Positions 14,249 to 31,262 of a stretch of DNA of 64,000 nt are shown in pieces (positions within the stretch are counted from its first letter, which is position 1; each line of letters starts with the position of its first letter). A program made the position numbers and the translations under genes. This DNA comes from a virus. The notes below the pieces were generated by a model. That model ran no database searches. It saw only the letters and a program-made list of their open reading frames with translations, and was not told the origin of the DNA. The stretch spans positions 132,541 to 196,540 of IMG/VR virus record IMGVR_UViG_3300027733_000030. One strand, written 5' to 3'.

Positions 14249-16648
14249 ATGTCATATTTCCATGGCATTGTGGTCCTCGCTGGAAGGTGGCTTCGGCTGC
14301 TGACTGGTGCAGACCATGTCCCGGGTACCACCGTCAAAGAAGAGTTTCAGGGAGGACAATATGTCCCCGCGTTCCTGGAGCACTTCTGGGCAGGTCGGTA
14401 CCGCGTCGAGGTGCGTAAGCTGTTCAGCCGTAAGGTTGGATCGTTGGAAAGCGCACCTGCCGTCACCAATAAGGAGCTGTTCTCTAGCGAAGTAATTCGT
14501 TGGAGCAACTCCTCGGACCAGTACATGTTGCGCATTAAGGGCAACAATGGCTGGCTTGCTAGCTTCAAGGAAATCGGTCTTCTGATCGCTAACTCCAAGA
14601 AGATGAGCAAGAGGTTAGTAGAACTCGTGCGCATGTCGTGCATGTGGCTCTACATACCCGAGGACAAAGCCCTTGAGGTTGACGTCATCGATCACAAAGC
14701 GTTGGGCATGCCTGACGAATATGTGGACGGTGCGACGTTCATCACCCGTGGGCTCGCAATCAAGTGCGTGAAGTCGAATACTTCGGCAACACGTGCTTGG
14801 CGGGCTCGGATGATCTGGAACATTCGCAATGGCAGTCTTGTCGTTGTGCAGTTCCGGATGCTCTGCGCGCTTGGAGAGATCAAAGGCAATGCCGTGATCA
14901 CTCCTCGTAAGCAGATGCAAGGCTACGAAGTTCGGACGTTTGCGCCGAATATCAAGGCTGAGATCCGAACCACTGGGTGGCAATGGGTCACATTGGAGCC
15001 GTCTTACGGGACGATTCCAGTGAAGTCTGACGATCTGACACATTCCATTTACTGGGATGTTAAGGGTCTGTATGACCACGACTCACTCCTGGCATGCCTG
15101 GAATCCTCTTTGAAGCAATTCAAGGAGGACTTGGTGGCTGGCAAACGCTCTGAATGGATGGAGAAACTCGCTGAAAGCAGTGGGTCTATCCTACATGAAG
15201 AGTCGGAGGTAAAGTATGCAAAGGATCGTGGCCTAGTTGGCAGGATTCAGCATGCGGTTGCTCAACTTAGTAAGTTGGGTGTACCTCTACACGCCAGTCA
15301 AACCCTGATGTTCCTCTCGGTCAATGGTTTGCGAAAGCAGCTGTTGGGCGACAATCGTCAGGGTGAGGTGTGGATGGACAAGTCTCGTCACTGGTTTCCA
15401 GTGTCGTGGGCTTATGCCGCTCACATCTATACCAAGGAAGTCCTCGAAATCGGTGGGTTTAAGATGCCCACTGGTAACGAAGGCTTCTTCCATGAGGCTA
15501 CCCACAGCTTCGTGGTACCTGGCCAGTTCTTGAAGGATAACTTTGAGAACTGGGGAGGTCCTGACTTGGATGATACTGTAAAGGTGCATGTGCGCCGAGT
15601 ATCAGACAAACAGGGCAAGGTCAAGTTGATGGGAATTGTCATGCGCAATCCGAATGATTTCGGTGAGTATGCGATGATTCCACTCAACGAAACCGGACCA
15701 ATATTCCACGACTATGGTGCTGAGCCCCCGCTGGTGGATCTGCAGGAACTATCTAGTAAGGTTCCGCAGTTCACAAAGCTGAAGAAGCATCTGAACATCG
15801 GATCTCTTCCGGCGATCACTAATCCACGTAAGCGTGGTGACGTGTTCTCGCTGGAGGATGAGTCGGCTGTTCGGCTTGCATCACAGGCTTTTCCACCAGG
15901 AATGGGCGGAACGGTCATCCCAAAGATGATCTGGTACGCTCAGTTCGGGAAGCCCATTGAGGAGTTGGTTGCAACTAACGAAGACATCGTTGATGTTCTT
16001 CAGCAGGGGCAAGCTTCTCTGGAGGATGTGCAGTTGATCAAGCAATGGATCGACAACACATTCACCACAATGGGCGAAAAGCTCAACTGGGAAATGGACC
16101 GCTTCTGGTTCATGACCCGGATGCCAGCACCGTTGGCAGAGTTATGGGAAACCTCATCCGAGGAAGTATCGCCTTGGGTCACACTCCATAAGGAGCGTGA
16201 GAACCTTGTGCGTCAGTACATTAAGGAAATGACGGATTGGCTGAATAGTCAAGTCGTTATGCCCGAAGTGCTGGCAAACATCAACTGGACTCCAGAAGAG
16301 CGCGCAAACGCTTGGAGGGAACTCCAGAAGATCAAAGAGGTTCATCAAGCAGCTCGAAACAGTAGTCTCACCTGGTGTGATTACTTCGTAGAGCTGATGA
16401 CCAAGAGCGATGAAGAGCATGGTAAAGAACGTACTGATCGTAAGATCTTGCGTTTGGCACACCAAGCCATCCTCGCGAAGGCTCAAACGCCAGGAGCAAA
16501 CCATGATCAGTGGCTGTTCTCGTTCAACGCTAAGAGCGAAATGCAACCGTACATGTTCTATGTGCGTGCTCTCAAGCGTGTTCAAGACGGAACCTATTCA
16601 TGGTTGCCCGCATCAGCAAGTCCGATTATTGAGGACATAGGGAGCTGA
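14249..16648 (+). CDS. Putative single-subunit two-barrel (QDE-1/YonO-like) RNA polymerase, paralog 1
   Basis: YVDGATFIT, QFR...GEIKGNA, NIKAEIR, GGPDLDD (15554-15574), VMRNP; colinear with 28644-31193; ATG at 14249 after AGGGAG. Confidence 0.65.
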   Translation: MSYFHGIVVLAGRWLRLLTGADHVPGTTVKEEFQGGQYVPAFLEHFWAGRYRVEVRKLFSRKVGSLESAPAVTNKELFSSEVIRWSNSSDQYMLRIKGNNGWLASFKEIGLLIANSKKMSKRLVELVRMSCMWLYIPEDKALEVDVIDHKALGMPDEYVDGATFITRGLAIKCVKSNTSATRAWRARMIWNIRNGSLVVVQFRMLCALGEIKGNAVITPRKQMQGYEVRTFAPNIKAEIRTTGWQWVTLEPSYGTIPVKSDDLTHSIYWDVKGLYDHDSLLACLESSLKQFKEDLVAGKRSEWMEKLAESSGSILHEESEVKYAKDRGLVGRIQHAVAQLSKLGVPLHASQTLMFLSVNGLRKQLLGDNRQGEVWMDKSRHWFPVSWAYAAHIYTKEVLEIGGFKMPTGNEGFFHEATHSFVVPGQFLKDNFENWGGPDLDDTVKVHVRRVSDKQGKVKLMGIVMRNPNDFGEYAMIPLNETGPIFHDYGAEPPLVDLQELSSKVPQFTKLKKHLNIGSLPAITNPRKRGDVFSLEDESAVRLASQAFPPGMGGTVIPKMIWYAQFGKPIEELVATNEDIVDVLQQGQASLEDVQLIKQWIDNTFTTMGEKLNWEMDRFWFMTRMPAPLAELWETSSEEVSPWVTLHKERENLVRQYIKEMTDWLNSQVVMPEVLANINWTPEERANAWRELQKIKEVHQAARNSSLTWCDYFVELMTKSDEEHGKERTDRKILRLAHQAILAKAQTPGANHDQWLFSFNAKSEMQPYMFYVRALKRVQDGTYSWLPASASPIIEDIGS

Positions 16649-16840
16649 CGCAGTACTCCTTGAGATAGGAGAACATCCTAGTTAGGTTTACATAACTAAC
16701 TGGAAGAAGGATGCCCCTGGGATTCAGTAGAAATACTGTTTCCTGGGGGCTACCCTTATAAAATTAATTTGCTATGAACGAGGTAGCTCTCGTCTGCGAC
16801 ATTGAAAGCAGTACCTGTGGGATTAAAAAGACCGCTAAAT

Positions 16841-16891
16841 GAGGAGGTTGTTGGGAAGAAATTCCTGGCAACCTCCTTTTTTTGAGGATAG
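16841..16891 (+). repeat. Repeat element R9 (a hairpin-only variant, R8, lies at 16705-16757)
   Basis: GAGGAG-GTTGTTGGGA/TTCCTGGCAAC-CTCC-T7-GAGGATAG. Confidence 0.8.
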
Positions 16892-17009
16892 TTCACTAGC
16901 CTCAAGCGCAGAACCTGAGCGCTCTATAAAGTATGGGTGACGCTGCAGGAGCTAAATCCTGACAGGAATTCCAACCTTGACAAATGGAATCAGCCAAGGA
17001 GGCACAAAA

Positions 17010-17378
17010 ATGGAAGCAATCAAGACAGCAAAGGATGGCCGTCAGTACACGGTCATCAATGGCAAAGCAGTCTTCATCAAGGGTTCAAAGCCCGTGGTGA
17101 AAGCTGCTGTCGAGATGGCACCGGCACCAACGCCAGCACAGACCAAGGGCATTGCCTGCGGTAATTGCAGTGGCAAGCACAGCACTGTTCAAGAAGTGCG
17201 CGCATGCTTTGGCGTGACCGTCGTCAACACCAAGTGGACAGCTCGTCCTACTGCAGTTATTACTGACCTTGACAAGAAAGTCATGGTTACCTGTGGTTGG
17301 GGCAAGGCAAGCCACAAGGTCGAGATGACCAAGGCCGATGCCATTGCATTCCGCAACACCTGCGAGCAGCATCGCTGA
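17010..17378 (+). CDS. Protein with C-x2-C-x3-H-x8-C zinc finger
   Basis: ATG at 17010 after AGGAGG; CGNCSGKHSTVQEVRACF. Confidence 0.7.
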   Translation: MEAIKTAKDGRQYTVINGKAVFIKGSKPVVKAAVEMAPAPTPAQTKGIACGNCSGKHSTVQEVRACFGVTVVNTKWTARPTAVITDLDKKVMVTCGWGKASHKVEMTKADAIAFRNTCEQHR

Positions 17379-17380
17379 TC

Positions 17381-17611
17381 ATGGCTTACAACCATCACAA
17401 TCAGCACTGCGGTCTCAGGGCAGATGGTTGCGAAGGTTTCATCTTCAAGGGCAATGGGCGATTCGTCGCTTACCCCTACAAGATGCTCCTTTGCGCCAGC
17501 TGTTACGAGACATGGTTGCAGCGGAATTCCGAAGGTAAGAAGAAGGCGTCTGACAAGCGCAATCTCAAGAACCTTCGAGACAGCCAGCCCACACTCTTCG
17601 ACCAGGAGTGA
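17381..17611 (+). CDS. Small Cys/His protein
   Basis: ATG at 17381 directly after the previous stop; HC...C...CASC. Confidence 0.6.
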   Translation: MAYNHHNQHCGLRADGCEGFIFKGNGRFVAYPYKMLLCASCYETWLQRNSEGKKKASDKRNLKNLRDSQPTLFDQE

Positions 17612-17625
17612 GCTGAAGAAGACTG

Positions 17626-17675
17626 AAGTCCCACTACACATCAAGTGTAGGAGGGACTTCTTTCTTTGAGGATAG
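17626..17675 (+). repeat. Repeat element R10
   Basis: GAAGTCCC...GGGACTTC-TTTCTTT-GAGGATAG. Confidence 0.75.
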
Positions 17676-17906
17676 ACTATTCGGGTCAGTCCACAAACGA
17701 AAGGAATGATCATGTACAAACCATTCAAAGAAGGGTGTGATCACGAAATGACAGAACCATCTGCTATTGGAGGCAAAAACATAGGCCTTGAATGGGAGAT
17801 AGTTAATCATTGGAGCCACTGCACAAAATGCTGGGGCACCAAAGTGACGCAAGAAATGCTGTGGATCGGAGAGGGTCCAGATCCCCGAAATGAGGAGGAA
17901 AGTGCT

Positions 17907-18470
17907 ATGGACAAACCATTGTATAAGGTAGCCTTTACAGGTCATCGCCCCAACAAAATTGGGGGATACAATGCAAAGACACCAATGCGTGTTGCTGTTA
18001 CTGAAGCCATTAACAACGCTCTTGCACGAGCAGTGGCCAAGTATGGTGAGACACATGAAGTGGTTGTCATCAGTGGAGGCGCTCTTGGCGTTGATACCGA
18101 TGCAGCACGGGAGGCTCATAAGATGGGTCTTCGGTTCATGATTGCAGCACCTTGCCGAAATCAGGACATTAAATGGCCTGCTGAAAGCAAGTTGACCTAC
18201 AAGAAGATGTGCGGATTTGCAGATGCAGATCTAGCTCGTACTCTTGCTAGCGACGGTGAAACTATTGAAGACGGTGTTATATACGTCTACAATGGTGAAT
18301 ACACCACGGCAAAGGTCATGCAGGACAGGAACATCTGGATGGTAGATCACGCTGACAGTGTGGTTGCTATTTGGGATGGCACGTCTGGTGGCACGGGAAA
18401 CTGTGTGGGTTATGCTCGCAACAAGCAAAAGCCCATGGTTGTAATCAACCCCACTAAGCTGCTTAGTTAA
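17907..18470 (+). CDS. SLOG superfamily YspA/DUF1273-like protein
   Basis: AFTGHRP, VISGGALGVD, RNIWMVDHAD, WDGTSGGTGNCVGYA; ATG at 17907 after GAGGAGG (the ORF extends in frame to 17706). Confidence 0.85.
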   Translation: MDKPLYKVAFTGHRPNKIGGYNAKTPMRVAVTEAINNALARAVAKYGETHEVVVISGGALGVDTDAAREAHKMGLRFMIAAPCRNQDIKWPAESKLTYKKMCGFADADLARTLASDGETIEDGVIYVYNGEYTTAKVMQDRNIWMVDHADSVVAIWDGTSGGTGNCVGYARNKQKPMVVINPTKLLS

Positions 18471-18487
18471 TAGTTTAGTAAGTTATC

Positions 18488-18570
18488 GAAAGGTTGTTCC
18501 CGGGGAGAAATCCTCGGGGACTTCCTTTTTTATCATAGACCATTACACTTAAATTCTTTTTTTATGATAG
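18488..18570 (+). repeat. Repeat element R11 plus a second T7-ATGATAG
   Basis: GAAAGG-GTTCCCGGGGA-GAAA-TCCTCGGGGAC-TTCC-T6-ATCATAG; TTC-T7-ATGATAG at 18554-18570. Confidence 0.75.
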
Positions 18571-18786
18571 GCACTTATTCTAAATCCCTCCGTGGATTGG
18601 GATAGGTTCCTAGTCCAGTTCTCTTTGCCTGTATTCTAAATCCCTCTGGGAGCATGCTGGCAAAAAGAAGGGGTTGTTTCCTTCCATAAAAAGAAGGGAG
18701 CAGTCCCCCCAGAGCATCTTCTGGGTAATAAAAAAGAAGGGTGACAATCCCGTCATCCGTCCAACGCATCAAAAGGAGAATATACC

Positions 18787-19185
18787 ATGCGTTTCATAGT
18801 TGCTAAACTCGGCATTGTTTCCGAGAAAACTGGAAAGACTCAAGTTGTCTTTCTGCCCGAAAACCAAGATGCCCCTGTTTGGGTGTCTGCTTGGTTGGCT
18901 ACCTCGTTCGTTGAAGAGCAGGTTGTGCCCGGCGTCGAAATCCTCGCGGAATCGGCGTCGCTAACCAAGTTGGAAACGTCGTACGAAAAGGACGGCGTTG
19001 TTGTGGGGTTGAAGTCCCCTCGTCGTTCGGTCATCTTCGGTGGTACAGTTTCGGCTGTTGCCCCAGAAGGTAACCCGTTGCCCGAAGTCGTCTATGCTAA
19101 GTCTGAATCTACTTCGGCTTACGTTCAGGCGTTTCGTGCTAAGCAGGCAATGAAGTCTGCAGATTTGGGTACTGACTCGTTCTGA
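18787..19185 (+). CDS. Hypothetical protein (possible OB-fold-like beta protein)
   Basis: AAAGGAG RBS, 132 aa, beta-rich pattern. Confidence 0.65.
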   Translation: MRFIVAKLGIVSEKTGKTQVVFLPENQDAPVWVSAWLATSFVEEQVVPGVEILAESASLTKLETSYEKDGVVVGLKSPRRSVIFGGTVSAVAPEGNPLPEVVYAKSESTSAYVQAFRAKQAMKSADLGTDSF

Positions 19186-19470
19186 GTCTTGTGCCGTACT
19201 TTGTCCGTTTCGCGGGCTCACCTCAGAGTAATATCTGGGGTGGGCTCGCCTTATTTTTTAACGCCCTGTCTCAGGACCCCTCGCTTCGCTCGGGATCGCT
19301 GAGCCAGTGCGGGCTTCGCCAATATGGTGAAGTCATATCTTTTTTTAAAATAGAACCTAGATCCTAGGTATCTATTCTAAATTTTTAAAATAGAATAGTA
19401 GATTAATCTATTGTTCAAACAAAAAAGAAGGGGAGTAATCCCACCAACAAAAGCCCTAAGGAGGCACACA

Positions 19471-19797
19471 ATGCACACATTAGGAATCATCCTAATCGGA
19501 ATGGCCTTAGGTATAGCTATGCTGTATCTAACTAATTTCATTGTCAGTAAAGCAAATGCTCGTCTTAACTATGGACAGAAGGTCCGTTTTGAAAGCGAAG
19601 TCATTGGACATATTTCAGTTTGTCGTTATCACGGCGTCAAGAAGTATTTCTTCACAACAAAGAACTTTGGGCCATTAAACCCTACTTCTTTCTATGAACG
19701 TGAAGATGCAATCTCAGCATGTCGCAAAGCTCATCTTGATGAAATGCTCAAAGAACAAGCTGAACGTCCTAAGCAAACATCGTTTCCAAGAGCGTAA
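19471..19797 (+). CDS. Protein with N-terminal membrane anchor
   Basis: ATG at 19471 after AGGAGG. Confidence 0.65.
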   Translation: MHTLGIILIGMALGIAMLYLTNFIVSKANARLNYGQKVRFESEVIGHISVCRYHGVKKYFFTTKNFGPLNPTSFYEREDAISACRKAHLDEMLKEQAERPKQTSFPRA

Positions 19798-20027
19798 ATT
19801 CTTGGTTAGCCTTCTTGCGGGCTATTCCTCTCAGAAGGAATCAAGGGATTGGATCATATGATCCTCTCCCAGCAACCAATCTTCCCTCCCAGGTTGAGCG
19901 TCCTTGCCATATACCCCCCTTTCGTATGGTAAGGATGCTCCCTGAGGGAGTTTATAGATCTTTGGTAATAACTTTTTTTTAAAAAAATAGATCTCTTCTA
20001 AAAAGAAGGGTTAGTAAAAGGAGAAAA

Positions 20028-20210
20028 ATGAATAAAATTACACTAAAAGTAATGATGGCAGTATATGCCGGATCATTCCTTGCTGGATTCATCTACGCAT
20101 TCGGCACAGAAATGCAAAAACAAAAGATGGAAATCAAACATACTCCATCAATTGAATTCCAAAATCTAGTCAACCACTACAACAACAAACAGAAAGAGAA
20201 AGTGTCATGA
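20028..20210 (+). CDS. Small membrane protein
   Basis: AAAGGAG RBS; hydrophobic N-terminal half. Confidence 0.6.
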   Translation: MNKITLKVMMAVYAGSFLAGFIYAFGTEMQKQKMEIKHTPSIEFQNLVNHYNNKQKEKVS

Positions 20211-20410
20211 AAATCGTACAAACAGCCGGAAAACTCTTCGGCAAAACCGTAGCCGTCAGTAAGAATGCGCCTTCAAAGACTGTCAAAGTCAGCAAAGCTG
20301 CATCCTCAAAGACCAAGAAGGCTCTTGTAAATGCAAAAGATGACTTGGTCGCCGGCTTCAATCAAGGTGCACAACGGACTTCAGATTCTGACGTCATTGA
20401 CATCAAGTAA
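20207..20410 (+). CDS. Small basic protein
   Basis: ATGA overlap; Lys/Ser/Ala-rich. Confidence 0.6.
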   Translation: MKIVQTAGKLFGKTVAVSKNAPSKTVKVSKAASSKTKKALVNAKDDLVAGFNQGAQRTSDSDVIDIK

Positions 20411-20582
20411 TAAAACCTTTGTTGGGAGTATAGCAACATCGCTATGCTCTCAACAAAAAAATTTACAATAGTATTCTAAAACTATTGTGAACATAGAAAA
20501 AGAAGGGACTTGACAAATGTCATATCCCAAATAATCAAAAGTAATTACATCCCCATTAAACACCTAACAGAAAGATATACTT

Positions 20583-21614
20583 ATGAGTATCCTTAGTCAA
20601 TTCGGACTTAGTTCCGACGATTTCAGCATTGTTGCTGATAGTCCAGAGTTATTTGAGTCCAACGGCAAAACTACCAAGCTCATTGCGGGCAAAGAAGTTA
20701 GCTACAATGTCACTATTGCTGGAAAGAAAATTCCTGCATATGTCACACTTGAAAGCGCAAAGTTGACTCGTCTCTCGCTCCTTGAGCAACAGACTCGCAA
20801 CGGTCGTGCCTATTGGCTCGCTACTGGCATGTTCAAGCCTGTCAAACTCAACATCGATCTTTTGATTGATGGTTCGCGCATGAACATCGTTGATCTTCTT
20901 CACACCATTGTGAAAGAAGCATCTGGTAAGCAAGATCATTCTCGTGAGCAGTTTGTTCGTGACCTTCGTAACATGGGCATGAACTTCGCTGACGGAATGC
21001 CTTTGTTCTTCCAACAATTCGGTGCAAGCTTCGAAGCATTTGAATCTGCTGTTACAGCATTCAAGCAAGCAGGAGCAACTGATGACCTAGCACGTATGGT
21101 CGGCAAGGGTATCAACCCAGGTCGTATTCGTGCTGCTTACGCTCATGAACAAGGTGTTGAAGTCACCTCGTTCGAACTCGGTACAGTTGATCGTACCAAG
21201 TCTGTGCGTAATCAGGGCTTTATCGATCTCGGAGATGCTGTCTTTGAACAGTTCCTTCGCGTCGTCAAGTTCACCAAAGAAGCAAATGTTCTCAAGAATG
21301 AAATCGAAAAGAACATTTCTACTTGGTCACAGGCACAAATCAAGTCTGCTCAAGAGCAAATCAAGAAGTTTGAGGATATGGCTAAACAATATACCTCGAA
21401 CTGGGCAGGTGCGCAACAGCGTATCGTCCAACTGCCTAATGGCAAACTTGAGAACAAAGATCAGTTTGATCCAGTAAACGCCCCTTGTGGTCGTTTCACT
21501 ATGCTCGTCGACAACAATCCTGTTGAAGTCGATCTGTGGACTAACTCAGCTACTGCAAATACATCAACAGTTGGAACTGAAGTTTCAATTCTTGATGGCA
21601 AAACTGGGTTCTAA
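20583..21614 (+). CDS. Hypothetical protein with highly-expressed-type codon bias
   Basis: 343 aa; TTC/AAC/ATC preference. Confidence 0.8.
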   Translation: MSILSQFGLSSDDFSIVADSPELFESNGKTTKLIAGKEVSYNVTIAGKKIPAYVTLESAKLTRLSLLEQQTRNGRAYWLATGMFKPVKLNIDLLIDGSRMNIVDLLHTIVKEASGKQDHSREQFVRDLRNMGMNFADGMPLFFQQFGASFEAFESAVTAFKQAGATDDLARMVGKGINPGRIRAAYAHEQGVEVTSFELGTVDRTKSVRNQGFIDLGDAVFEQFLRVVKFTKEANVLKNEIEKNISTWSQAQIKSAQEQIKKFEDMAKQYTSNWAGAQQRIVQLPNGKLENKDQFDPVNAPCGRFTMLVDNNPVEVDLWTNSATANTSTVGTEVSILDGKTGF

Positions 21615-22320
21615 TAACTTAATGGTTTGTCCGTTCCATTCAAAAACGGACACCCCTAATTGTATAACGGATTTGCCCGAACATACAATATGGTTACAGG
21701 GATGACTGTAAGCCCTGGTAAAATGAACAGTTGGAGTTTGTCTATACTCTACAAAAAAGTAGACGTTTACCCTATCTAACTTGGAGAGAAGGTATCCCGA
21801 AAGGAGCAAGTTACGATACTCTAGTAAAGTCTGATTGAAAAAGTATCCGAGAAATGCTAGATCAGATAGGCTGCGCTTGTCTTTAGTGAAGCGTCAGGAT
21901 TGGTAGCGACCTGCTTACTATGTCTCGTCTGGTATATGCGAGCCACATGGCTACCAATATACCACCCCCTTGGGGCTAATGGTTACAAGTATCTGGTTTA
22001 AAGCATAATGCAATAACCTGTAATCTTTACAGGCTACATTGTATATTATGGACATCTTGTCTTCGTGCAAAGCCATTTCAGTGAGGTTCGATTCCTCAAA
22101 GCTCCACCGAGTACTGCAGGTAACACATAACTAGGGACACTAAAGTGGAACCGTGGATTGATGTTACACACTGTCATGTGTAATGTCTACTGTGACAGCA
22201 GTAGCCTGCGGGAAAGTCTTGTTTGCGGAAGCTGATCGGCAAATTTGTCAGCTGTATTCAACAATTTCGAGTTGAATGCGCATATCCACGTAAGACTCGT
22301 GGCGCAAACACCTTTCTAAT
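21615..22320 (+). ncRNA. Large structured non-coding region (candidate long ncRNA or ncRNA cluster)
   Basis: More than 12 nested helices, e.g. GTCCGTT/AACGGAC, ATTGGTAGC/GCTACCAAT, TGTTTGCG/CGCAAACA enclosing three hairpins; no credible ORF. Confidence 0.6.
21972..22108 (+). ncRNA. tRNA-like / tmRNA-TLD-like RNA with alanine acceptor stem
   Basis: GGGGCT.../AGCTCC-A-CC (G3.U70, A73); T-arm TGAGG-TTCGATT-CCTCA; no D-arm; long rod in place of the anticodon arm. Confidence 0.6.
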
Positions 22321-22360
22321 AAAAAAAATTTTAGTACAAACAAAACAGAAAAGGAGCAAT

Positions 22361-22522
22361 ATGTCAGATCAAGAAAGATATCCTTGCAGCCTATGCTGGC
22401 AAGAATCAGGTGGCAAACTAATTGTCCCAAACGTTCAAGGTTTTAACCTTGGTAGTGGTGGACATTGGTATGCCTGCGAAAAACACTTAAACAATCCAAT
22501 GTTTCAAAAAGAGGAGAAATAA
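22361..22522 (+). CDS. Small Cys protein
   Basis: ATG at 22361 after AAGGAG; CSLC...CEKH. Confidence 0.55.
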   Translation: MSDQERYPCSLCWQESGGKLIVPNVQGFNLGSGGHWYACEKHLNNPMFQKEEK

Positions 22523-22524
22523 AC

Positions 22525-22710
22525 ATGTCATTAGAAAATGATCCCGCCAACGGAATCTTCCGTCACAAATGTGTCGTAGATAGTTGTGACAATCACATCA
22601 TCTATGACGATGAACCCAGGTGCTACTCATGTAGCCCAGATGAAGGTTCGTCAGTACGTGGATACTCTGCTTATGCAGAATACTTGGCTTCATCACCATT
22701 ACATCGCTAA
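22525..22710 (+). CDS. Small Cys protein
   Basis: ATG at 22525 after GAGGAG; C-x4-C...CYSC. Confidence 0.55.
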   Translation: MSLENDPANGIFRHKCVVDSCDNHIIYDDEPRCYSCSPDEGSSVRGYSAYAEYLASSPLHR

Positions 22711-22719
22711 TAAAGATCG

Positions 22720-22773: not shown

Positions 22774-23019
22774 ACAAATAGACCTCTATAAGGGGGGGGC
22801 CCGCGAAGCGGGGGGGTACCCTACAGGATATTATCAGAACATCATAACGTCAGTTATACTATTCTCTATATATAGGGAATAATATAACATAAAAAAAATT
22901 TAGTATAGATTTTTAGTCTTGATGTTTCGCCGGCCTGTCCACAGGCCAAATATCCTAGTCCAACTAGAAACTATTTTCCCCAAAAATATTTCCAAATCCC
23001 AGCATAACACAACTGCTTA

Positions 23020-23028
23020 TGCTATAAT
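23020..23028 (+). promoter_or_regulatory. Extended -10 promoter (TGnTATAAT)
   Basis: TGCTATAAT about 50 nt upstream of 23077. Confidence 0.55.
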
Positions 23029-23076
23029 ATACCTACGAAAGTAAGTACCCCTACATAAACAAGGAGTATAGACGAG

Positions 23077-23292
23077 ATGCCCAAACAGCATCAATCAAAA
23101 GCAATGAAGCAAGTCTTAAGAGAGATCGAAAGACTTGGATTCACTGTCAACCATAAGAAGTCCGGTTCGTATACCATCATCCCTCCCTCCGATGTAGACG
23201 GACCCATATACAATACTCATGGGACGGAATCCGCACTCCATCCAATGAGAAGAGACTTTAAACGTCTGTATGATATACAACTCCCTATATAG
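23077..23292 (+). CDS. Small protein resembling the HicA/dsRBD-like fold
   Basis: LREIERLGFTVNHKKSGSY pattern; AAGGAG RBS. Confidence 0.45.
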   Translation: MPKQHQSKAMKQVLREIERLGFTVNHKKSGSYTIIPPSDVDGPIYNTHGTESALHPMRRDFKRLYDIQLPI

Positions 23293-23674
23293 GGAATAAT
23301 ACTTTCAGCAGGGATAAGTGGTAGAACTAGGTGGTGGTTCTACCACTATCCTTGTACATATCCATCCTATCACAGGTTATAATAGTAGGATTTTTGTTGG
23401 ACAAACAGTGTTCAACGACCCCTTTCACGTGGGTACCCATACATTACATGACTATTAAGCATGTAAAACTATGTGGTATCCACTTTTTTTATACCTATAG
23501 TCCTCTATGGGTACATATAAAAGAAGGGTAACTACACTATCAAGGGGGGGCCCCACGCAGTGGGGGGTACTCCCTCTATATCTATCTCTATATTAATAAC
23601 TATATATCTATCAACAGAAAAATGTTTTGCGGGCGAATCCCACAAAACTCTAAACCAAAATAAAAGGAGAAACA

Positions 23675-24106
23675 ATGTTATCATTTATGATTATGTTAGC
23701 TATAGCTTCAACTGTAGTAGAACTATCTTTTGCTGCGAGGATTCCAGCATGGAGACGTATGGCTAAGAAGAATAAGGCTTTCAATATGACCATCTCTATT
23801 GGTGTGTCATTCTTGATCGGCATTATGTTTGGTGCGGGCGGGCTTATTGCCATGTCCGCAGCCATTATTTCTACCGTATTCTCCATTCCAGGCTATGCCT
23901 TTCTAGAATGGGCATACGATTCTCCTATGGCTACAGCCAAAGGAACAAATCTGATTAACTATTACATCCAGAGATGGAAGCAAGTTCTCGCTGACTTGAT
24001 GCAATTATTGTATAAAGTTCTGCGAGTTATCACATTCCCCATTTGGGGAACTCGTAATGCAATCATCAAATTTAATGCAATCAAATCCAAATACACAAAA
24101 GCCTAA
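23675..24106 (+). CDS. Multi-pass membrane protein
   Basis: AAAGGAG RBS; three hydrophobic segments. Confidence 0.7.
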   Translation: MLSFMIMLAIASTVVELSFAARIPAWRRMAKKNKAFNMTISIGVSFLIGIMFGAGGLIAMSAAIISTVFSIPGYAFLEWAYDSPMATAKGTNLINYYIQRWKQVLADLMQLLYKVLRVITFPIWGTRNAIIKFNAIKSKYTKA

Positions 24107-24121
24107 AGGAGGCCTAGTATC

Positions 24122-24445
24122 ATGAGTCAAAACAATATGGTTAACTTCATTACTCTGACCGACCCCGATGGGGACAAGGTCGAACTCAATCCTGCCTTCA
24201 TCACTATGATGAGAAGGGATACCTACGAACCTGAAGAAGGCGTTGAAATCCCCATGACAGCTATTTATACTTCTTGGGGCTACAAGATGTTTTCTATGGA
24301 AACTCCAGAAGAAGTTGTCAAACTTCAAATGGACGGTATCCAGAATATGATGAAGTCCGTTATGAATACAACTTACAACATGTTCGAAAGCATGGATTCA
24401 GGCTTAGACATCGCAAGTTTACTTGAAGGAGACGAAGACGAATGA
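24122..24445 (+). CDS. Hypothetical protein
   Basis: AAGGAGG RBS, 107 aa. Confidence 0.65.
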   Translation: MSQNNMVNFITLTDPDGDKVELNPAFITMMRRDTYEPEEGVEIPMTAIYTSWGYKMFSMETPEEVVKLQMDGIQNMMKSVMNTTYNMFESMDSGLDIASLLEGDEDE

Positions 24446-24663
24446 CTAAAACCAAACAACTATCACTTCATCAGAAAGCTTACTGGGAAGAAACCAAGAA
24501 TCGTGTCGATACTTGGGCTCGAACCAATGAGCCTGATGCATACAACTACAACTCCCGTGCTACCTACTGGGGCCTAGCCCTACATGCAGGAATCATTACC
24601 AAGGTAATGTATGACTTTGCTGGCGAGCAGTATGGCTCCCTATGGTGGTACGTAGGAGACTGA
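24442..24663 (+). CDS. Hypothetical protein
   Basis: ATGA overlap, 73 aa. Confidence 0.6.
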   Translation: MTKTKQLSLHQKAYWEETKNRVDTWARTNEPDAYNYNSRATYWGLALHAGIITKVMYDFAGEQYGSLWWYVGD

Positions 24664-24665
24664 TC

Positions 24666-25001
24666 ATGCCTAAATACGCTATGACACTTAATGAAAAAGT
24701 TCATCGTAATTATGCTATGTTTAACGACTATATTTCTGGGAGATCTATTATTAAGATTTCCCGGGAATATGGTCTAACATATGATCGTACTCGTACCATA
24801 CTTAAGGAGCACAATATGAGACAATACTTTGTCGTAGACTACGAAGATGACTTCGTCTTGTACGAAGGAACTCTAGAAAACTGCGAAGAAATTCTCCAGC
24901 AGAATTATGCTGGACTTATGCTTGTCGGATATCGAGATCTTACCTCAGGTATGATCGGATCCCTCAAGCAGCTGAGAAGTAAAAACAAAGAACAGATATG
25001 A
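24666..25001 (+). CDS. HTH-containing protein
   Basis: ATG at 24666; YISGRSIIKISREYGLTYDRTRTIL helix-turn-helix. Confidence 0.6.
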   Translation: MPKYAMTLNEKVHRNYAMFNDYISGRSIIKISREYGLTYDRTRTILKEHNMRQYFVVDYEDDFVLYEGTLENCEEILQQNYAGLMLVGYRDLTSGMIGSLKQLRSKNKEQI

Positions 25002-25148
25002 CACAAAATAACAATCATGTATGGGTCATTCTTAACGAGGATGATTATCGCTGTGTTAACTGCGATATCAGATACTCTCCCACCAGGGATAATCAAGAAT
25101 GCTCATACCAAAAAACTAGTCAACACTCTAACAATAAGGAGGCATACT

Positions 25149-25394
25149 ATGCCTAGTATCAATACAAGTTATCACTTGGATTCTCAAGAAATCCCACAAG
25201 TAAATGTCACTACACACTATGTTCTAGACAAAGATGGTATTGAGACTGAAAAGTTAAATTTTCATGTCTTTAGAATTCAGACAAATCAAGGTGAATCTAA
25301 CTACTTCATTCATACAGATGAGCAGCTTGGAGAATTCATTGCAAACTTGAAAAGTCTAACCAATCAATTCGACAGAATCTCGATGTATAACTAA
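25149..25394 (+). CDS. Hypothetical protein
   Basis: ATG at 25149 after AAGGAGG. Confidence 0.6.
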   Translation: MPSINTSYHLDSQEIPQVNVTTHYVLDKDGIETEKLNFHVFRIQTNQGESNYFIHTDEQLGEFIANLKSLTNQFDRISMYN

Positions 25395-25630
25395 TGAAGA
25401 AATATAACTTCTCATCTACTGATTCCATCGTTAAGCAGGTTATTCATAATAATATCTGCATACACTGTGGGGAAGACAATCAAATAATTTTAGATGCAGT
25501 CGCATTAGCCAATTGGCGTAACCGCGAACTCATTCAAAATGTATTCCCTAACTTAAATTATCAACAAAGAGAAATTATTCAAACTGGCATTCATCCTGAA
25601 TGCTGGGAGGAAATGTTTCCACTAAAATAA
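25394..25630 (+). CDS. Small Cys protein
   Basis: CIHC...HPECW; stop/start overlap. Confidence 0.6.
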   Translation: MKKYNFSSTDSIVKQVIHNNICIHCGEDNQIILDAVALANWRNRELIQNVFPNLNYQQREIIQTGIHPECWEEMFPLK

Positions 25631-25641
25631 GGAGGATAACA

Positions 25642-25929
25642 ATGAAACAAGCTCACTGCTTCATCTGCAGTAATCACCTCAGCCAGCAATGGCCTGAGGG
25701 TTTAAATACTGAGCCTTCATACGAACCCTGGGAAGATGTCAAAAACGGCATTAGCCTTAGGCTAAACGCTGGTTATGGCTCCGACCATGATGGCGACTAT
25801 GGTCGTATTCTTATTTGCGACACCTGTTATGGTGCCCGCAAAGAAAACGTAATAGACCTGAAAAACTGGATTGAAGATAGTATTAGAGATATGCATCCTG
25901 ATGACCTTGAGGTCATCGATCCTATCTGA
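25642..25929 (+). CDS. Small Cys protein
   Basis: ATG at 25642 after AAGGAGG; CFIC...CDTC. Confidence 0.6.
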
Positions 25930-25945
25930 TATACTCTAGTCCAAT

Positions 25946-26022
25946 GCTTCCGTAGCTCAGCAGGATAGAGCATCGGACTTCTAATCCGCAGGTCGTACGT
26001 TCGAATCGTACCGGGAGCGCCA
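25946..26022 (+). tRNA. tRNA-Arg(TCT)
   Basis: Full cloverleaf; loop CT-TCT-AA; GTTCGAAT T-loop; encoded CCA. Confidence 0.95.
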
Positions 26023-26306
26023 TGACACTTATACACTTAGACATAGCTATTGAAAATAGCACTGAAGTAAGACTAGGAGACATTCGTCAATGGATCAAAG
26101 AAGTGGACAAGTTTAACTTGCCCAATGACTATCCAGTATACGAATGTGCTTTAGCCCTAGTCATCGAAATACCAGAACATAACATCACTCCTATCGAGTG
26201 CATGGAATGTCCTCCACAACAACCTAATCATGATGTACTTATCGTAACTCATGACTGCATTAACCCGCCAAACAAGTTAGCCGAAGCTTACGATCAAGCT
26301 ATGTAA
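26022..26306 (+). CDS. Hypothetical protein; ATG shares its A with the tRNA CCA
   Basis: 94-aa ORF. Confidence 0.55.
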
Positions 26307-26313
26307 GGATCTA

Positions 26314-26386
26314 TCCGAGATAGCTCAGTAGGCAGAGCAGCTGACTGTTAATCAGCGGGTCGCAGGTTCGAGCCCTGCTCTCGGAG
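26314..26386 (+). tRNA. tRNA-Asn(GTT)
   Basis: TCCGAGA/TCTCGGA acceptor; loop CT-GTT-AA; no encoded CCA. Confidence 0.95.
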
Positions 26387-26442
26387 CAAAGGTACATATA
26401 AAAAATTGAAGAGAAGAATCTATAAAGGATTCTTCTAACTTC

Positions 26443-26561
26443 GTTGGTTAACCTCTGTGAGCTGTAGCATACTGCCCCCCAGAAGCTCGCCGTGCTTCTA
26501 GTTTTAGCCTCCTTTTAACTAGCAACATTCAATATCTGCCATTGAGCAGAGGTTGATCAAC
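26443..26561 (+). ncRNA. Candidate small structured RNA
   Basis: 15-bp closing helix GTTGGTTAACCTCTG/CAGAGGTTGATCAAC; inner hairpins, one with CCTCCTT in its loop. Confidence 0.45.
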
Positions 26562-26730
26562 TACTCTAAAAATGTTATACCCCTGAATTTATATAACTTC
26601 AGGGTCAACTATACATAATATATATAATGTTTGTAATCATATAAACATATAAACTCATTAAATACCCTATAAATATTTTATTTTTACCATCGTTTTATAC
26701 ACCTTTATATACAAACGTGAGGATAAAATA

Positions 26731-26946
26731 ATGTCAAAACACACTAATATTTTAACATACATCAACACAATAGTAGGAGCTACAGTAACTACCAAAGCAC
26801 TCTGTGCTTCTTGTAATTGTACGCTACCTACTATCCTATCATACATAAAAAATAACGCCAACCGTTTTGAAAAAGTTGGTCGTGGCAAATACACTATCAA
26901 AGCAGAAACAAATAATCTTGGTACAATTACTCACCCACAAGGGTGA
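26731..26946 (+). CDS. Small putative winged-helix DNA-binding protein
   Basis: GAGG RBS; helix-turn-helix plus wing pattern (RFEKVGRGKYTI). Confidence 0.5.
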   Translation: MSKHTNILTYINTIVGATVTTKALCASCNCTLPTILSYIKNNANRFEKVGRGKYTIKAETNNLGTITHPQG

Positions 26947-27073
26947 TAATAAAGATTTTTTGGTACTATTATGCTACCTTAGTAATAAGGTTGCAGGAGT
27001 GGCTATGCGATAATATAAGCGTGCGGACGCCTTAGCAACACTCTGTTGTAATCGTCCCAGTAAAGGAGACTAT

Positions 27074-27259
27074 ATGAGCTATTTTGAATCTAACGGATTC
27101 CAAAAAGATTTTAACAATCTGTTAAAGTCAATCCTATTAGTTTCCAAGAAGATCGAAGAACTTACTATTGAAGTTCGTTCAATTCGAGAATCTATTACTG
27201 TGGACCCTAACAAGGAGAAGTCCACTGAATTTGTTACACTACCAAAAACTATGCTATAA
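27074..27259 (+). CDS. Small coiled-coil protein
   Basis: AAAGGAG RBS. Confidence 0.55.
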   Translation: MSYFESNGFQKDFNNLLKSILLVSKKIEELTIEVRSIRESITVDPNKEKSTEFVTLPKTML

Positions 27260-27432
27260 TAAGTACATGCCCCTAATGGGCACGGGATACTAATTCCCAC
27301 ATGTAACAAGGCAACTTGTGAAATGAGGAAAAACTTACCGCTGCCATCACTAGGCATGTAGTCCTTGTTTCGCAACCTGCGATATACACTACTTGGAAAT
27401 TCCAAGGAGTGCTTACCGAAAGGAGCGAACCA
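27252..27432 (+). promoter_or_regulatory. Extended -10 promoter followed by a structured ~170-nt leader of the transglycosylase genes
   Basis: TGCTATAAT at 27252-27260; TACATGCC/GGCATGTA closing helix with three inner hairpins. Confidence 0.45.
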
Positions 27433-28002
27433 ATGCAATTTAGGTTCAAAAATATAGTCAAGCAATTAAGAGATGATAAGACTACTCTTATCGTTTCTTT
27501 ATGCGTTTTAGGTTTAGTATTAATTACTCTGTTGACATCTTGTGGCAACAAAGTACATAATGCTCAACCACCGTTAACAGTAACTATCACTACAACTCTT
27601 CCAGTTGTTACAACCGTTCCTGTTCCCCAGACTACTTCAGCACCAACTACAACGATGCCTGATTTATCTGGCGTTGACTGGGTTGCTCTCGCAAGAGAAC
27701 AATATGGCAAGTGTGGCGAATGGCACAATCTTGCTATCTCAGTAGGTTGGCCTGAAGAAGAATGGAAACATCTTCAGCAAGTCATCTATCGCGAGAGCAG
27801 ATGTCAAGCTGAAGCTTGGAATGGTTCAGATGGTGGCTTAACCCAAATCAACAGAGTCCACACTCAGTGGCTTTCTGATATGGGTTACAAGTTTCCGGAC
27901 GACATGTTTGACGCAGAGAAGAATCTCACATTCGCATTTCGTTTATGGGAGACTTCTGGATGGAGACCCTGGAAATCTTCAGGATCAACATTTGGTGTTT
28001 GA
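27433..28002 (+). CDS. Lytic transglycosylase (SLT/lysozyme-like) with N-terminal membrane/lipoprotein anchor and Thr/Pro linker
   Basis: ATG at 27433 after AAGGAG; IYRESRC catalytic Glu motif, GLTQIN, GWRPW. Confidence 0.8.
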   Translation: MQFRFKNIVKQLRDDKTTLIVSLCVLGLVLITLLTSCGNKVHNAQPPLTVTITTTLPVVTTVPVPQTTSAPTTTMPDLSGVDWVALAREQYGKCGEWHNLAISVGWPEEEWKHLQQVIYRESRCQAEAWNGSDGGLTQINRVHTQWLSDMGYKFPDDMFDAEKNLTFAFRLWETSGWRPWKSSGSTFGV

Positions 28003-28004
28003 TC

Positions 28005-28511
28005 ATGACTATCAACAAGATAGTTTCAATCATAACAGCAACATTATTGTCTGCTGTTATTCTAATCACCAATACCAATACATCTAATGCCCAAGCCGTA
28101 CAGACTACTAATCCTCCAGTTGACTTGTCTCAAGTTAATTGGACAGAATTAGGTAGACTTATTTATGGTAAATGTGGCGAGTATCACGACCTTGCTATCC
28201 AAGCAGGATGGCCAGAATCTCAGTGGCCTACACTGAGTTATGTCATGCATCGTGAATCTCGCTGTAATACATTATCCTTTAATAAGACAGATCCTAATGG
28301 AGGTAGTCGTGGTCTTATCCAAATCAATGGATTTTGGTGTAAGAAAAGCCGTTGGTCTTCCAAAGGCTGGCTACAAGACAAATCCATTCTCAACACATGT
28401 GACGATCTATTTGATCCACTAACCAACCTGCGTGCAGGATGGGCTATGTGGCAATATAGTCAGGAACATAATCGTTGCGGATGGAGACCATGGGCAACTA
28501 GGTGTAAGTAA
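28005..28511 (+). CDS. Second lytic transglycosylase paralog with signal peptide
   Basis: ATG at 28005; MHRESRC, GLIQIN, GWRPW. Confidence 0.8.
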   Translation: MTINKIVSIITATLLSAVILITNTNTSNAQAVQTTNPPVDLSQVNWTELGRLIYGKCGEYHDLAIQAGWPESQWPTLSYVMHRESRCNTLSFNKTDPNGGSRGLIQINGFWCKKSRWSSKGWLQDKSILNTCDDLFDPLTNLRAGWAMWQYSQEHNRCGWRPWATRCK

Positions 28512-28535
28512 ACCTAAACATAACTCAGTTCATTC

Positions 28536-28580
28536 AAAAAAAGGGGACTGCTCGAGGAAACTCGGGCAGTCCTTTTTTTT
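28536..28580 (+). terminator. Intrinsic terminator (potentially bidirectional)
   Basis: A7-GGACTGCTCGAG-GAAA-CTCGGGCAGTCC-T8. Confidence 0.8.
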
Positions 28581-28643
28581 ATTGTACATACAAAAAAACA
28601 ACTTATTAGTACAAACAAAATATAAATATATTAGGAGGCAATA

Positions 28644-31193
28644 ATGGCAAGTCGAATATATGAGCACAACCTGCGGTTACAAGCTTTGCTTGGTGGACCG
28701 CTTCGTGGTGGTGAATCCTATCAGTTTGGATTCTATGATGCAGGTGTCCTGCGTCAAGCTCTAGATACCGTAGGTTCTGGAGGTTATAAAGTTTGGACTC
28801 TTCCGATTCCTCAGAATCAACAAGAGTTCAACCGTGCGAAAGAACTTGTGAATGATCCTAAAGTGCAGTATGCTCTTGTGGATAAGAACAAGATTGTTTT
28901 CGTAGTTATCGAAGACAGCCCTGGCTGGATGAGTGTTATTGATAAGCTTGGCTATGAAGTTATGTCTGGTCCCAAGACCAATAAAAGACTTAAGTCGCTT
29001 CATCGTCCAACCCTCCTCAATGCTCACTTTACTCATCTCAATATTAAATTCGTGGAACCTACTGAGTTCTCACGTTATAATTTTGTAGATGAAAATGATG
29101 ATTGGGGCGTATCATCAGAATTCCGCAATCCTGAAGTAATCGAAAGATTACTTGATGGCGGTTTCGTTATTAGTCGTAGAATTGTTCAGGAATCTGTAAA
29201 GAATCTACCTACATATAATCCTGATAACTCTACTGATAATCAAGATTATTACTATGATCCTCACATTCGCAAGAATCTTGTGAAAGATCTACTGGATTCA
29301 TCTGTGTTTAATGCTCGCATTATCTTCGCAGATGGATTCATTAAGGGCAATGCATTCGTTGCAGATCTCCCTGACGGTATTGATGTTATTACTTCACGTA
29401 CTAATATCAAGAAGGAAATCCGATATACTGAAGGATTTCGTTTCCTAGCAGAACCTCAAGGACCAAAGTCTCGTGTCATCACCGATGATCAGACTGTTCT
29501 CAACTTTCCTAAACTATTCCGCAAAAGCGACATGACTATGTGGCTCACGGAAGAGTATAAGAAAATGTATGCAGATGCTACTAGTGGTAACTTGTTAACT
29601 AACTGGAAGTATATCTATCAGCGCACTTGGCGTGATAAAGATGATCTCAATGATAACGAAGCACGTGCTCGCATGGCTTATGTTGGTTATCGTTGGACTG
29701 CTGCAGGATTTAAAATTACGGAATCTCCGTGGCTTTTCGAGACTGTAGCTATCTCTCACGCTAAACCACTGCTCGAACGTATTCCAATTCCTTGTTCAGT
29801 CTATGAACAGATTGTTCCGGAATCGCTCGTGCGCATGGCTGGTTATGATGTAGAGGTTGAAGAAGGTACGATTATTCGTATCAATGAACTTGGAGTTCAT
29901 GTCGTCAATGATGTTGACTGGCTTGAGATGTATGAATCTCATGGCGGTCACGATCAAGATGACTTCTTTAAGCTCTTCTATCGTGACATGGAAGGCGGAG
30001 ATAATGATGGCGAGAAAATGGTTATCGCAATCAGATCTCCAAATGGCTATGGCGAGTATACCATGTTCCGTCATGTTGAAGGATCATGGTCTCCGAGCTG
30101 GTATAAAGCTGATGGAACTCAAGTTAAGTTCCCTAAAGTTAATGGTCGCAACTGGCCCAAGCGTCTAAGCGAAGCCATCGCTGCTAAGCAGGTTGTTTAC
30201 TCAGGTTTGCCTTCGGCATCTAAACCAAAAGTAAATCGTTCTGGTCCATATACTCAAGATGATGTTCTTCGTGATATCACTATTGCTATGGCTGGTGGCA
30301 ATGTAGGCGGTTTCGTAAACGCATGCATGGCTCACTCCATGGTGATCGGTAAGCATCGCCCAGTACAACTCTGTTCACTGGAAGATGCTATCGATAAATG
30401 TATTAATCCTGACGATGCTCAGGATGTTATTGCTATCGATAGCGAAGCTAATCTTATGATGCGCGAAGTTATTGAATCAGGTAAACCTATCGATGAATAC
30501 ATCTGGTATGATCGTGGGTTTGCTCGCTTTCTTAAGCGAGATGAAACTGTTGAACTTTATGAAGGTAAAATCTCGCAAGTTATTAACTTGTGTAGTACAT
30601 TTTACAATGAATATGTTCAACAGATTCGTGCTTGGTCTCAAGAAAACGCACGTCCAGTTGACATCATTCACACTTTAGGTAGTCGTATGTATTGCTTTGC
30701 AATTCCAGTACTACGTGATTTCAGAATGAAACTGTTTAACAACAACACCACTGAACAAACTATTAGTAATGGAGTTATCCAGCGCAATAGTTGGGAAAAT
30801 CTCTACCAAAATATTGTAGATATTATCAATTCATATGAACGAATTCAAGATAGATTTGATTTCGTTCTTGCATTGTATTCTGCTACTATCCAAATTCCAA
30901 CTTCGTATGGTAAGGTTACCGATCAAATCGTTATGAATCGATTTGTCTATCCTTATTTGGAAGCAGCTCTACAGTATTATGGTGTAGCTAATATTCCTGT
31001 CTACAACAATACTAGTGGTCAAGTCAAGATTCAGATTATGAAGAATGACGAATGGTATTGGCCGGATAACAATGGTGTTAACCAGCGTTACACTAAGGCT
31101 ATTGACTTTCAGAATGCTCATTCTGAGAATTCTCCAGTAATATTCACTATGCCTCCGGCACGTCCTATGACGTTAACAAAGTCAATTATTTAG
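28644..31193 (+). CDS. Putative single-subunit two-barrel (QDE-1/YonO-like) RNA polymerase, paralog 2
   Basis: LLDGGFVIS, NAR...GFIKGNA, NIKKEIR, GGHDQDD (29943-29963), AIRSP, VGGFVN; AGGAGG RBS. Confidence 0.7.
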   Translation: MASRIYEHNLRLQALLGGPLRGGESYQFGFYDAGVLRQALDTVGSGGYKVWTLPIPQNQQEFNRAKELVNDPKVQYALVDKNKIVFVVIEDSPGWMSVIDKLGYEVMSGPKTNKRLKSLHRPTLLNAHFTHLNIKFVEPTEFSRYNFVDENDDWGVSSEFRNPEVIERLLDGGFVISRRIVQESVKNLPTYNPDNSTDNQDYYYDPHIRKNLVKDLLDSSVFNARIIFADGFIKGNAFVADLPDGIDVITSRTNIKKEIRYTEGFRFLAEPQGPKSRVITDDQTVLNFPKLFRKSDMTMWLTEEYKKMYADATSGNLLTNWKYIYQRTWRDKDDLNDNEARARMAYVGYRWTAAGFKITESPWLFETVAISHAKPLLERIPIPCSVYEQIVPESLVRMAGYDVEVEEGTIIRINELGVHVVNDVDWLEMYESHGGHDQDDFFKLFYRDMEGGDNDGEKMVIAIRSPNGYGEYTMFRHVEGSWSPSWYKADGTQVKFPKVNGRNWPKRLSEAIAAKQVVYSGLPSASKPKVNRSGPYTQDDVLRDITIAMAGGNVGGFVNACMAHSMVIGKHRPVQLCSLEDAIDKCINPDDAQDVIAIDSEANLMMREVIESGKPIDEYIWYDRGFARFLKRDETVELYEGKISQVINLCSTFYNEYVQQIRAWSQENARPVDIIHTLGSRMYCFAIPVLRDFRMKLFNNNTTEQTISNGVIQRNSWENLYQNIVDIINSYERIQDRFDFVLALYSATIQIPTSYGKVTDQIVMNRFVYPYLEAALQYYGVANIPVYNNTSGQVKIQIMKNDEWYWPDNNGVNQRYTKAIDFQNAHSENSPVIFTMPPARPMTLTKSII

Positions 31194-31256: not shown

Positions 31257-31262
31257 ACTCTT

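Follow-up and report, generated by a model that had tools for sequence, protein, structure and literature searches.

Two paralogous genes in an uncultured lake phage

The stretch analyzed here (hereafter, the window) comprises 64,000 nucleotides of IMG/VR record IMGVR_UViG_3300027733_000030 (positions 132,541 to 196,540), the sequence of an uncultured lake phage of ~190 kb, and contains two paralogous genes for proteins that resemble single-chain, two-barrel RNA polymerases (RNAPs). Paralog A (14249..16648, 799 aa) lies in a GC-rich block of early type, and its open reading frame (ORF) is supported by a ribosome-binding site (RBS), GGGAGGGAG, and by relatives; paralog B (28644..31193, 849 aa) is an ORF preceded by an AGGAGG RBS. 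Both genes, like the other features whose coordinates are written with two dots, lie on the plus strand. The start of paralog A is placed at ATG 14249; an in-frame ATG upstream, at 14210, was rejected, as the alignment with the closest homolog starts at residue 14 of that longer ORF. GC content is 0.51 around paralog A as compared with 0.36–0.41 around paralog B, in agreement with the initial annotation of this DNA, which had assigned the two genes to a GC-rich and an AT-rich region, respectively. Directly upstream of paralog B, 27409–28511 encodes a neighboring pair of small proteins in which lytic-transglycosylase (SLT / SLT_3) domains are weakly matched. The window as a whole is a long stretch of small plus-strand genes that also includes six tRNA genes, RecA, a ClpB-like AAA protein, a superfamily 2 (SF2) helicase, and further AAA proteins, and it appears to be a segment of a large phage genome; identical copies of paralog B occur on contigs from lake metagenomes that reach 189–197 kb.

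BLASTP alignment of the two proteins recovers two colinear high-scoring segment pairs (E 6e-6 and 9e-6). The initial annotation had described the two ORFs as colinear homologs sharing six motif pairs; all of these pairs are present within the BLASTP segments and fall in aligned columns by both BLASTP and hhalign. Comparison of the A family profile with the B family profile by hhalign gives 99.5% (E 2e-23) over 541 columns. Given this profile match, the BLASTP segments, and an identity between A and B of ~20%, the paralogy, as judged from the sequences, is real and old. Two complete relatives of 202 and 210 kb with terminal repeats, G002 and G003 (IMG/VR 3300021091_000001 and 3300013005_000001), each hold one ortholog of A and one of B, ~15 kb apart; the paralog A ortholog in G002 shows 46% identity.

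Phage relatives of these genes are numerous. When all of 1.8 billion cluster representatives were scanned, paralog A matched 132 clusters; for paralog B, 232 relatives reach E <= 0.001, and the best 120 of them are 54–83% identical. Searches of Pfam and NCBIfam returned no match for either paralog, PDB sequence searches (phmmer, hmmsearch) returned no meaningful match, and PHROGs yielded none for A and one marginal match for B (phrog_22977, function unknown, E 0.003). Neither paralog matched any of 50,697 deposited phage genomes by megablast or tblastn, and a Pfam scan of 48 diverse relatives identified neither PF05183 nor any other relevant family. The PF05183 hidden Markov model (HMM) for RNA-dependent RNA polymerases (RdRPs) did not match A or B at E <= 1, a test of low power, as the bona fide member YonO also fails (E <= 0.01). 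Querying BFVD identified two relatives, both named 'uncharacterized protein [uncultured Caudovirales phage]'. Because the family escapes Pfam and NCBIfam, has no informative PHROG match, and appears in BFVD as uncharacterized protein, transcription enzymes are probably missing from the annotation of many environmental phage genomes.

In an alignment of 117 sequences that includes both paralog types, G172, K234, D437, D439, D440, R464, P466, and D584 are invariant (residue numbers here and below are those of paralog B), and K111, K114, R115, D171, R225, G231, G235, N254, K256, E258, G434, G470, and E471 are conserved in at least 90% of sequences. The invariant set includes the residues of the DxDD, KG, and RxP motifs (D437, D439, D440, K234, R464, and P466) whose conservation among homologs had been proposed as a check on the initial annotation. 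In this set as well as in the 48 diverse relatives, conservation at the DG, R, KG, K, DxDD, and RxP positions and at D584 is complete or at least 90%, and GGxDxDD is found in essentially every full-length relative, with very few exceptions.

Predicted fold and strand order of the catalytic barrel

An AlphaFold2 model of paralog B, with the family alignment as input, has a mean predicted local distance difference test score (pLDDT) of 91.8 and a predicted template modeling score (pTM) of 0.89. At E <= 0.001, a Foldseek search of the PDB with this model returned two-barrel RNA polymerases only, matched over nearly the full length; the best match is QDE-1 (E 2.6e-9), and the others include maize and Arabidopsis RDR2, P74-26 gp62, and crAss phi14:2 gp66. 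P23-45-like gp64 comes next, just outside this threshold (E 1.6e-3), and P23-45 gp96 is weaker still. VIA-align, applied to the same model, returned paired values of 12.3 and 575 for maize RDR2, about 10 and 575–594 for QDE-1, 8.9 / 8.8 and 456–465 for gp64 / gp62, 7.2 and 322 for gp96, and 6.0 and 462 for gp66; past the 16 polymerase rows, it lists double-psi-barrel proteins that are not related (NarG, aspartate decarboxylase, and p97-N), which match residues 105–273 (the first barrel) only. An ESM-feature search pointed to viral clusters labeled PF05183 RdRP and was taken as a lead only. The structural comparisons of the predicted model agree with the initial proposal of a QDE-1/YonO-like enzyme, and they support placement of A and B, by a predicted overall fold in which two double-psi barrels are arranged about one cleft as in RNAP beta/beta', QDE-1, and gp64, in the superfamily of two-barrel (double-psi beta-barrel, DPBB; QDE-1/RdRP/YonO-like) polymerases.

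The nearest solved structures are eukaryotic RdRPs, and the NADAR and SLOG domains fused to A-type relatives (described below) are typical of conflict systems; both observations would suit RNA-dependent RNA polymerases or RNA terminal transferases of QDE-1/RDR-like type, acting, for example, in RNA amplification or modification during host-defence conflict. Such a role nonetheless appears improbable, as QDE-1 itself is described as also taking DNA templates (PMC9508822), the characterized phage members of the clade (YonO, gp66, gp64, and gp96) are all DNA-dependent (PMC5467207, PMC10770324), and the genes in the window are flanked by conserved promoter-like DNA motifs. Archaeal PolD also falls within the two-barrel superfamily (PMC4996933), and a non-canonical metal loop leaves the choice of substrate open, so that DNA polymerases with PolD-like chemistry, serving replication or repair, might be considered. 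However, no PolD chain occurs among the structural matches, the strong ones all being RNA polymerases, and another protein of the window, of 1173 aa, weakly matches a DNA-polymerase exonuclease; we regard this alternative as very unlikely.

The first, beta-like double-psi barrel of paralog B (29001..29459) is orthodox in the model: DG (29154–29159) is on the first strand, R225 and K234-G235 (KG, 29343–29348) are on the next hairpin, and K256 (29409–29411) follows 22 residues on. As in a basic barrel with two conserved lysines, K234 (invariant) and K256 (97% conserved) are both on barrel 1 strands. In paralog A, the KG of the first barrel is at 14882..14887, with DG at 14726–14731 and the second lysine at 14954–14956. 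The second, catalytic barrel of paralog B (29796..30074) has a pLDDT of 95.1 when folded alone as a domain. Its modeled order is b1 (385–392), a short helix, b2 (409–413), b3 (418–421), a helix (423–432), the GGHDQDD loop (434–440; 29943–29963), and b4 (441–450), after which come b5 (458–464), ending in R464-S-P466 (RSP, 30033–30041), and b6 (473–477). The metal-loop motif of paralog A, GGPDLDD (15554..15574), is aligned with the B loop by BLASTP and hhalign, and its RNP motif (15644..15652) lies 24 residues past the Asp loop.

This arrangement departs from that of the superfamily in two respects, both of which had been reported in the initial annotation for the two copies and hold there and family-wide. 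The carboxylates of the metal loop stand at positions 1, 3, and 4 rather than 1, 3, and 5, with D437, D439, and D440 invariant and the fifth position variable; in place of the D-x-D-x-D triad of two-barrel polymerases, the family thus has a near-invariant D-x-D-D in which one carboxylate is shifted by one residue. Additionally, the canonical strand order, with the RxP strand before the Asp loop and the loop before the last strand, is not observed: in both paralogs R-[NS]-P lies ~25 residues beyond the Asp loop. The family is a large, unannotated phage branch within an established superfamily, and both structural deviations affect the element that is most conserved there. In the putative active site, barrel 1 would contribute R225, K234, and K256 (paralog B numbering) as basic residues and barrel 2 three carboxylates from the D-x-D-D loop, with the invariant R-x-P hairpin encoded behind the metal loop and not ahead of it. 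The loss of both the canonical DxDxD and the canonical RxP position might instead indicate inactive structural descendants of a polymerase; this is extremely unlikely, as DxDD, RxP, both lysines, and DG are invariant across relatives that are 17–25% identical, a pattern that marks a functional active site.

The unit formed by strand, helix, GG, Asp loop, and strand resembles that of QDE-1 and YonO; three strands and a short helix precede it, and two strands follow. Foldseek searches with the isolated catalytic barrel returned no match at E <= 0.001 (best E 0.6). The top structural matches, weak and partial, are mostly RNAP catalytic barrels in sequential alignment, and include those of African swine fever virus (ASFV), vaccinia, Pol I, II, III, and IV, bacterial beta', PhiKZ, AR9, QDE-1 (910–1031), gp62, and gp96. 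Alignments to UFD1, PEX1-N, a designed symmetric DPBB, PhiKZ, the plastid-encoded RNAP (PEP), and Pol V stop at model residue 72–83, that is, at b4. Because RNAP catalytic barrels lead these matches and the canonical DPBB alignments end at b4, we read barrel 2 of the model as being of RNAP catalytic type, with b4 as the canonical last strand and with the two strands that normally precede coming from behind the loop. It is likely, on the predicted structure, that the catalytic barrel is rewired such that the chain threads in a non-canonical order, either by a clean circular permutation or by relocation of the RxP hairpin. The initial annotation had proposed a circularly permuted barrel: the mid-barrel position of the loop, with RxP behind it, fits a re-ordered chain, but permutation in the strict sense does not follow, as the isolated-barrel alignments are weak and partial and re-ordered barrel profiles failed to discriminate (the best against the YonO catalytic barrel by hhalign being 34%, E 4e-4, with the Asp loops unpaired). 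Mean-field direct coupling analysis of 234 sequences (Meff 128) gave a signal dominated by indel columns and was not used.

Promoter-like motifs, a tail-module paralog, and neighboring genes

The block that contains paralog A (12120..18620) holds about 10 modules composed of a terminator-like, GC-rich hairpin, a T-run, and GAGGATAG, with 12 motif matches as compared with 1.5 expected. Class-I copies of the motif (TTTTTTGAGGATAG) occur at 12164, 12669, 13053, 13680, 13977, 14148, 16878, 17662, and 18557, with a variant at ~13305. These modules stand 45–90 nt ahead of an RBS, each before a tiny gene; the copy at 14148 is 88 nt upstream of paralog A, and three copies lie beyond A. The T-run and ATAG are invariant in the module alignment, and a second hairpin of 4–5 bp is often present (e.g., AGGCCATTGGCCT at 14161). 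With a GC content of 45–51%, as compared with 30–40% elsewhere, 12120–18620 looks like an early region of one-gene transcription units. An equivalent hairpin with TTTATGGnTAG is found in G002 and G003 (~50% protein identity), clustered just upstream of paralog A.

From 19.4 kb on, class I is replaced by a class-II motif, with 11 matches as compared with 3.35 expected, all on the plus strand. Two copies, TGTACATACAAAA followed by AGTACAAACAAAA, lie 25–60 nt upstream of paralog B (28583..28620), and further copies occur at 19412, 22333, 23510, 26391, 31901, and 62929. In G002, GTACATACAAAA is found downstream of paralog A, and GTATATACAAAA, a one-mismatch class-II copy that is not significant alone, is found shortly ahead of paralog B. 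The region is divided between these two motif classes, both of them enriched and strand-specific and partly conserved in relatives. Terminator-like sites are also numerous (50 vs. 15.6 expected), sigma-70-like sites are not enriched (47 vs. 41.5 expected), and no sigma70_r2 or beta' Pfam domains are detectable in the complete relatives G002 and G003.

Searches with the family profile also gave a weak third match, in the tail module of relatives. In G003 this match is an ORF of 1356 aa in which KG, KxE, GGFDLDD, and RQP are ordered as in A and B, and that aligns with the family by hhalign (92%, E 6e-7, 271 columns). Directly upstream is a gene for a tape-measure-like protein of 2220 aa without a Pfam match (G003 L018:3238-9900); the two ORFs are adjacent and unfused, with 7 nt from the stop of the former to the start of the latter. 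The lineage, as represented by G003, therefore possesses a tape-measure-linked, tail-module paralog of the type known from P23-45, an addition to the two copies described in the initial annotation.

The Thermus phage P23-45 has a tape-measure-fused virion RNAP that reads pre-early promoters, including that of a non-virion RNAP, which in turn reads a second promoter class (PMC10770324). Because the pattern of motifs and paralogs described here parallels that system, a polymerase relay is favored, and we think that A and B are probably phage DNA-dependent RNA polymerases of the single-chain, two-barrel QDE-1/RdRP/YonO-like clade that take part in such a relay. The tail-module paralog would probably enter with the phage DNA and would read the hairpin/T-run/GAGGATAG units of the early block, which holds paralog A. 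Paralog A would then read GTACATACAAAA-type units, including one before paralog B, and paralog B or a host enzyme would read the remaining genes. The initial annotation had suggested that the two enzymes serve successive transcription stages, which fits the two distinct promoter-like motif classes; the staging itself and the polymerase activity, like template and product, the pairing of enzymes with motifs, and virion packaging of the third copy, are what we infer.

Several points weigh against this interpretation. The metal loop departs from the canonical DxDxD, and no sequence-profile link to known RNAP families was recovered from Pfam, NCBIfam, or PDB hmmsearch, with PHROGs marginal only; YonO by itself, its family, and excised barrel regions all gave non-significant hhalign comparisons. 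The polymerase assignment accordingly draws on predicted structure and short motifs, the assignments of promoters to enzymes are pure inference, and a k-mer search of intergenic regions from 31 to 64 kb gave no convincing third (late) motif. What the analysis shows is homology, a predicted fold, residue invariance, motif order, and the clustering and conservation of the motifs. In addition, A-type relatives of 1191–2126 aa carry an N-terminal Pif1-like superfamily 1B (SF1B) helicase, NADAR or DUF4326, and SLOG domains; one such fusion is encoded at the syntenic place after the ClpB-like and RecA genes; and DnaG zinc ribbon, Toprim_2, and Prim-Pol domains are not detectable in G002 and G003, where positive controls matched.

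These last observations suggest that one paralog, most likely the A type, might be a replicative primase or replication-coupled RNA polymerase that primes helicase-unwound DNA instead of making messenger RNA. The neighborhood of both genes is compatible with such a role: a YpsA/SLOG-family gene (17706..18470; Pfam PF06908, E 2e-12) adjoins paralog A within the early block, and an SF2 DNA helicase gene lies 1.9 kb downstream of paralog B. However, transcription is the better fit for a set of three paralogs that includes a tail-module copy and for two block-specific motif classes; divergent primases can escape Pfam, and fusion to a helicase would be equally useful to a transcribing enzyme. We consider a priming function of one paralog unlikely but the leading alternative to transcription, and the T7-type precedent indicates that a transcriptase can also prime, so that the two roles are not exclusive.

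The 1173-aa protein mentioned above is encoded on the minus strand (1518–5039); it has no Pfam match, its PHROG match, a weak one (E 9e-5), is an exonuclease subunit of DNA polymerase, and it may represent a replicative DNA polymerase that has diverged strongly. Genes for six tRNAs (Arg-TCT, Asn-GTT, Leu-TAA, Lys-TTT, Thr-TGT, and Ile-TAT) are scattered through the genes of the middle region (25946–39947), and an HNH endonuclease gene is present at 36812–37456. The ORFs at 43026–47690 include a Prok-JAB domain (45014–46663) and a ThiF/E1-like domain (46663–47421), followed by an ORF of 84 aa, and are consistent with a ubiquitin-like conjugation operon.

Comparison with known two-barrel polymerases

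Few structures in biology are as conserved as the catalytic double-psi barrel and its DxDxD loop; it unites cellular RNA polymerases, RdRPs, and PolD, and it serves to trace polymerases to the last common ancestor. If the above reading is true, a family that keeps the two-barrel architecture with a respelled loop and re-ordered strands would show the extent to which such an active site tolerates rebuilding. In its fullest form, that a widespread freshwater phage lineage of ~200 kb achieves expression by three paralogous single-chain two-barrel RNAPs with a rewired barrel (RxP strands behind the loop) and a D-x-D-D triad, and that this is the first natural topology change of the catalytic double-psi barrel, the proposal is put forward tentatively. 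Full-text search of the literature library used identified no paper that joins two-barrel polymerases with permutation or that treats a polymerase loop of the DxDD form, in line with the suggestion in the initial annotation that the branch may be undescribed. For biochemistry, the enzymes would also provide a new set of compact polymerases (~800 aa) together with short candidate promoters of their own.

QDE-1 and the plant RDR2 enzymes (PDB 2J7N, 7Y7T, 7W82, 7ROZ) share ~10% sequence identity with the phage family and have no HMM match to it; they are eukaryotic silencing enzymes, whereas A and B are proteins of a bacterial virus. In QDE-1, DPBB2 spans 916–1018, with Asp 1007, 1009, and 1011, and the loop precedes the last strand (PMC1750930). 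Its loop is D-x-D-G-D, as compared with D-x-D-D in the phage family, and its RxP is upstream of the Asp loop, whereas in the phage family two strands, with RxP, lie behind the loop. In the modeled barrel of the phage enzymes, the catalytic loop thus has a middle position: compared with QDE-1, two strands fewer precede it and two more follow. The basic residues are more alike: Q736/K743 and K767 of QDE-1 are comparable to R225/K234 and K256 of the phage family, with similar spacing of the lysines (PMC1750930).

Among phage enzymes, YonO of the Bacillus prophage SPbeta (839 aa), a DNA-dependent RNAP of the RdRP-like clade with two barrels in a single chain, is similar in size to A and B. The DG, R..KG, S..K, and RSP....E motifs are common to YonO and the family, but the RSP of YonO lies ~45 residues before DNDGD, the reverse of the order seen here. 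The virion RNAP gp66 (PDB 6VR4) from phi14:2, a crAss-like phage, is considerably longer, at 2180 residues, and has loop Asp at positions 1, 3, and 5 and, to the extent published, a canonical barrel order.

The P23-45-type enzymes compared here (gp96 and gp64 of Thermus phage P23-45 and gp62 of P74-26) provide a parallel in the organization of transcription. They keep DxDxD (DFDGD in gp96), as opposed to the DxDD of the present family, and the survey in the P23-45 paper recognized 23 families united by the DxDxD region (PMC10770324). The phages of the present family have genomes of ~190–210 kb and are from freshwater. Should the proposed relay hold, N4 and P23-45 would be joined by a third case in which infection is staged by several phage-encoded polymerases, here all of one fold. 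P23-45 has two such enzymes, the tape-measure-fused virion gp96 and the non-virion gp64, whereas the present lineage has three paralogs, and the tail copy of G003 is a separate ORF.

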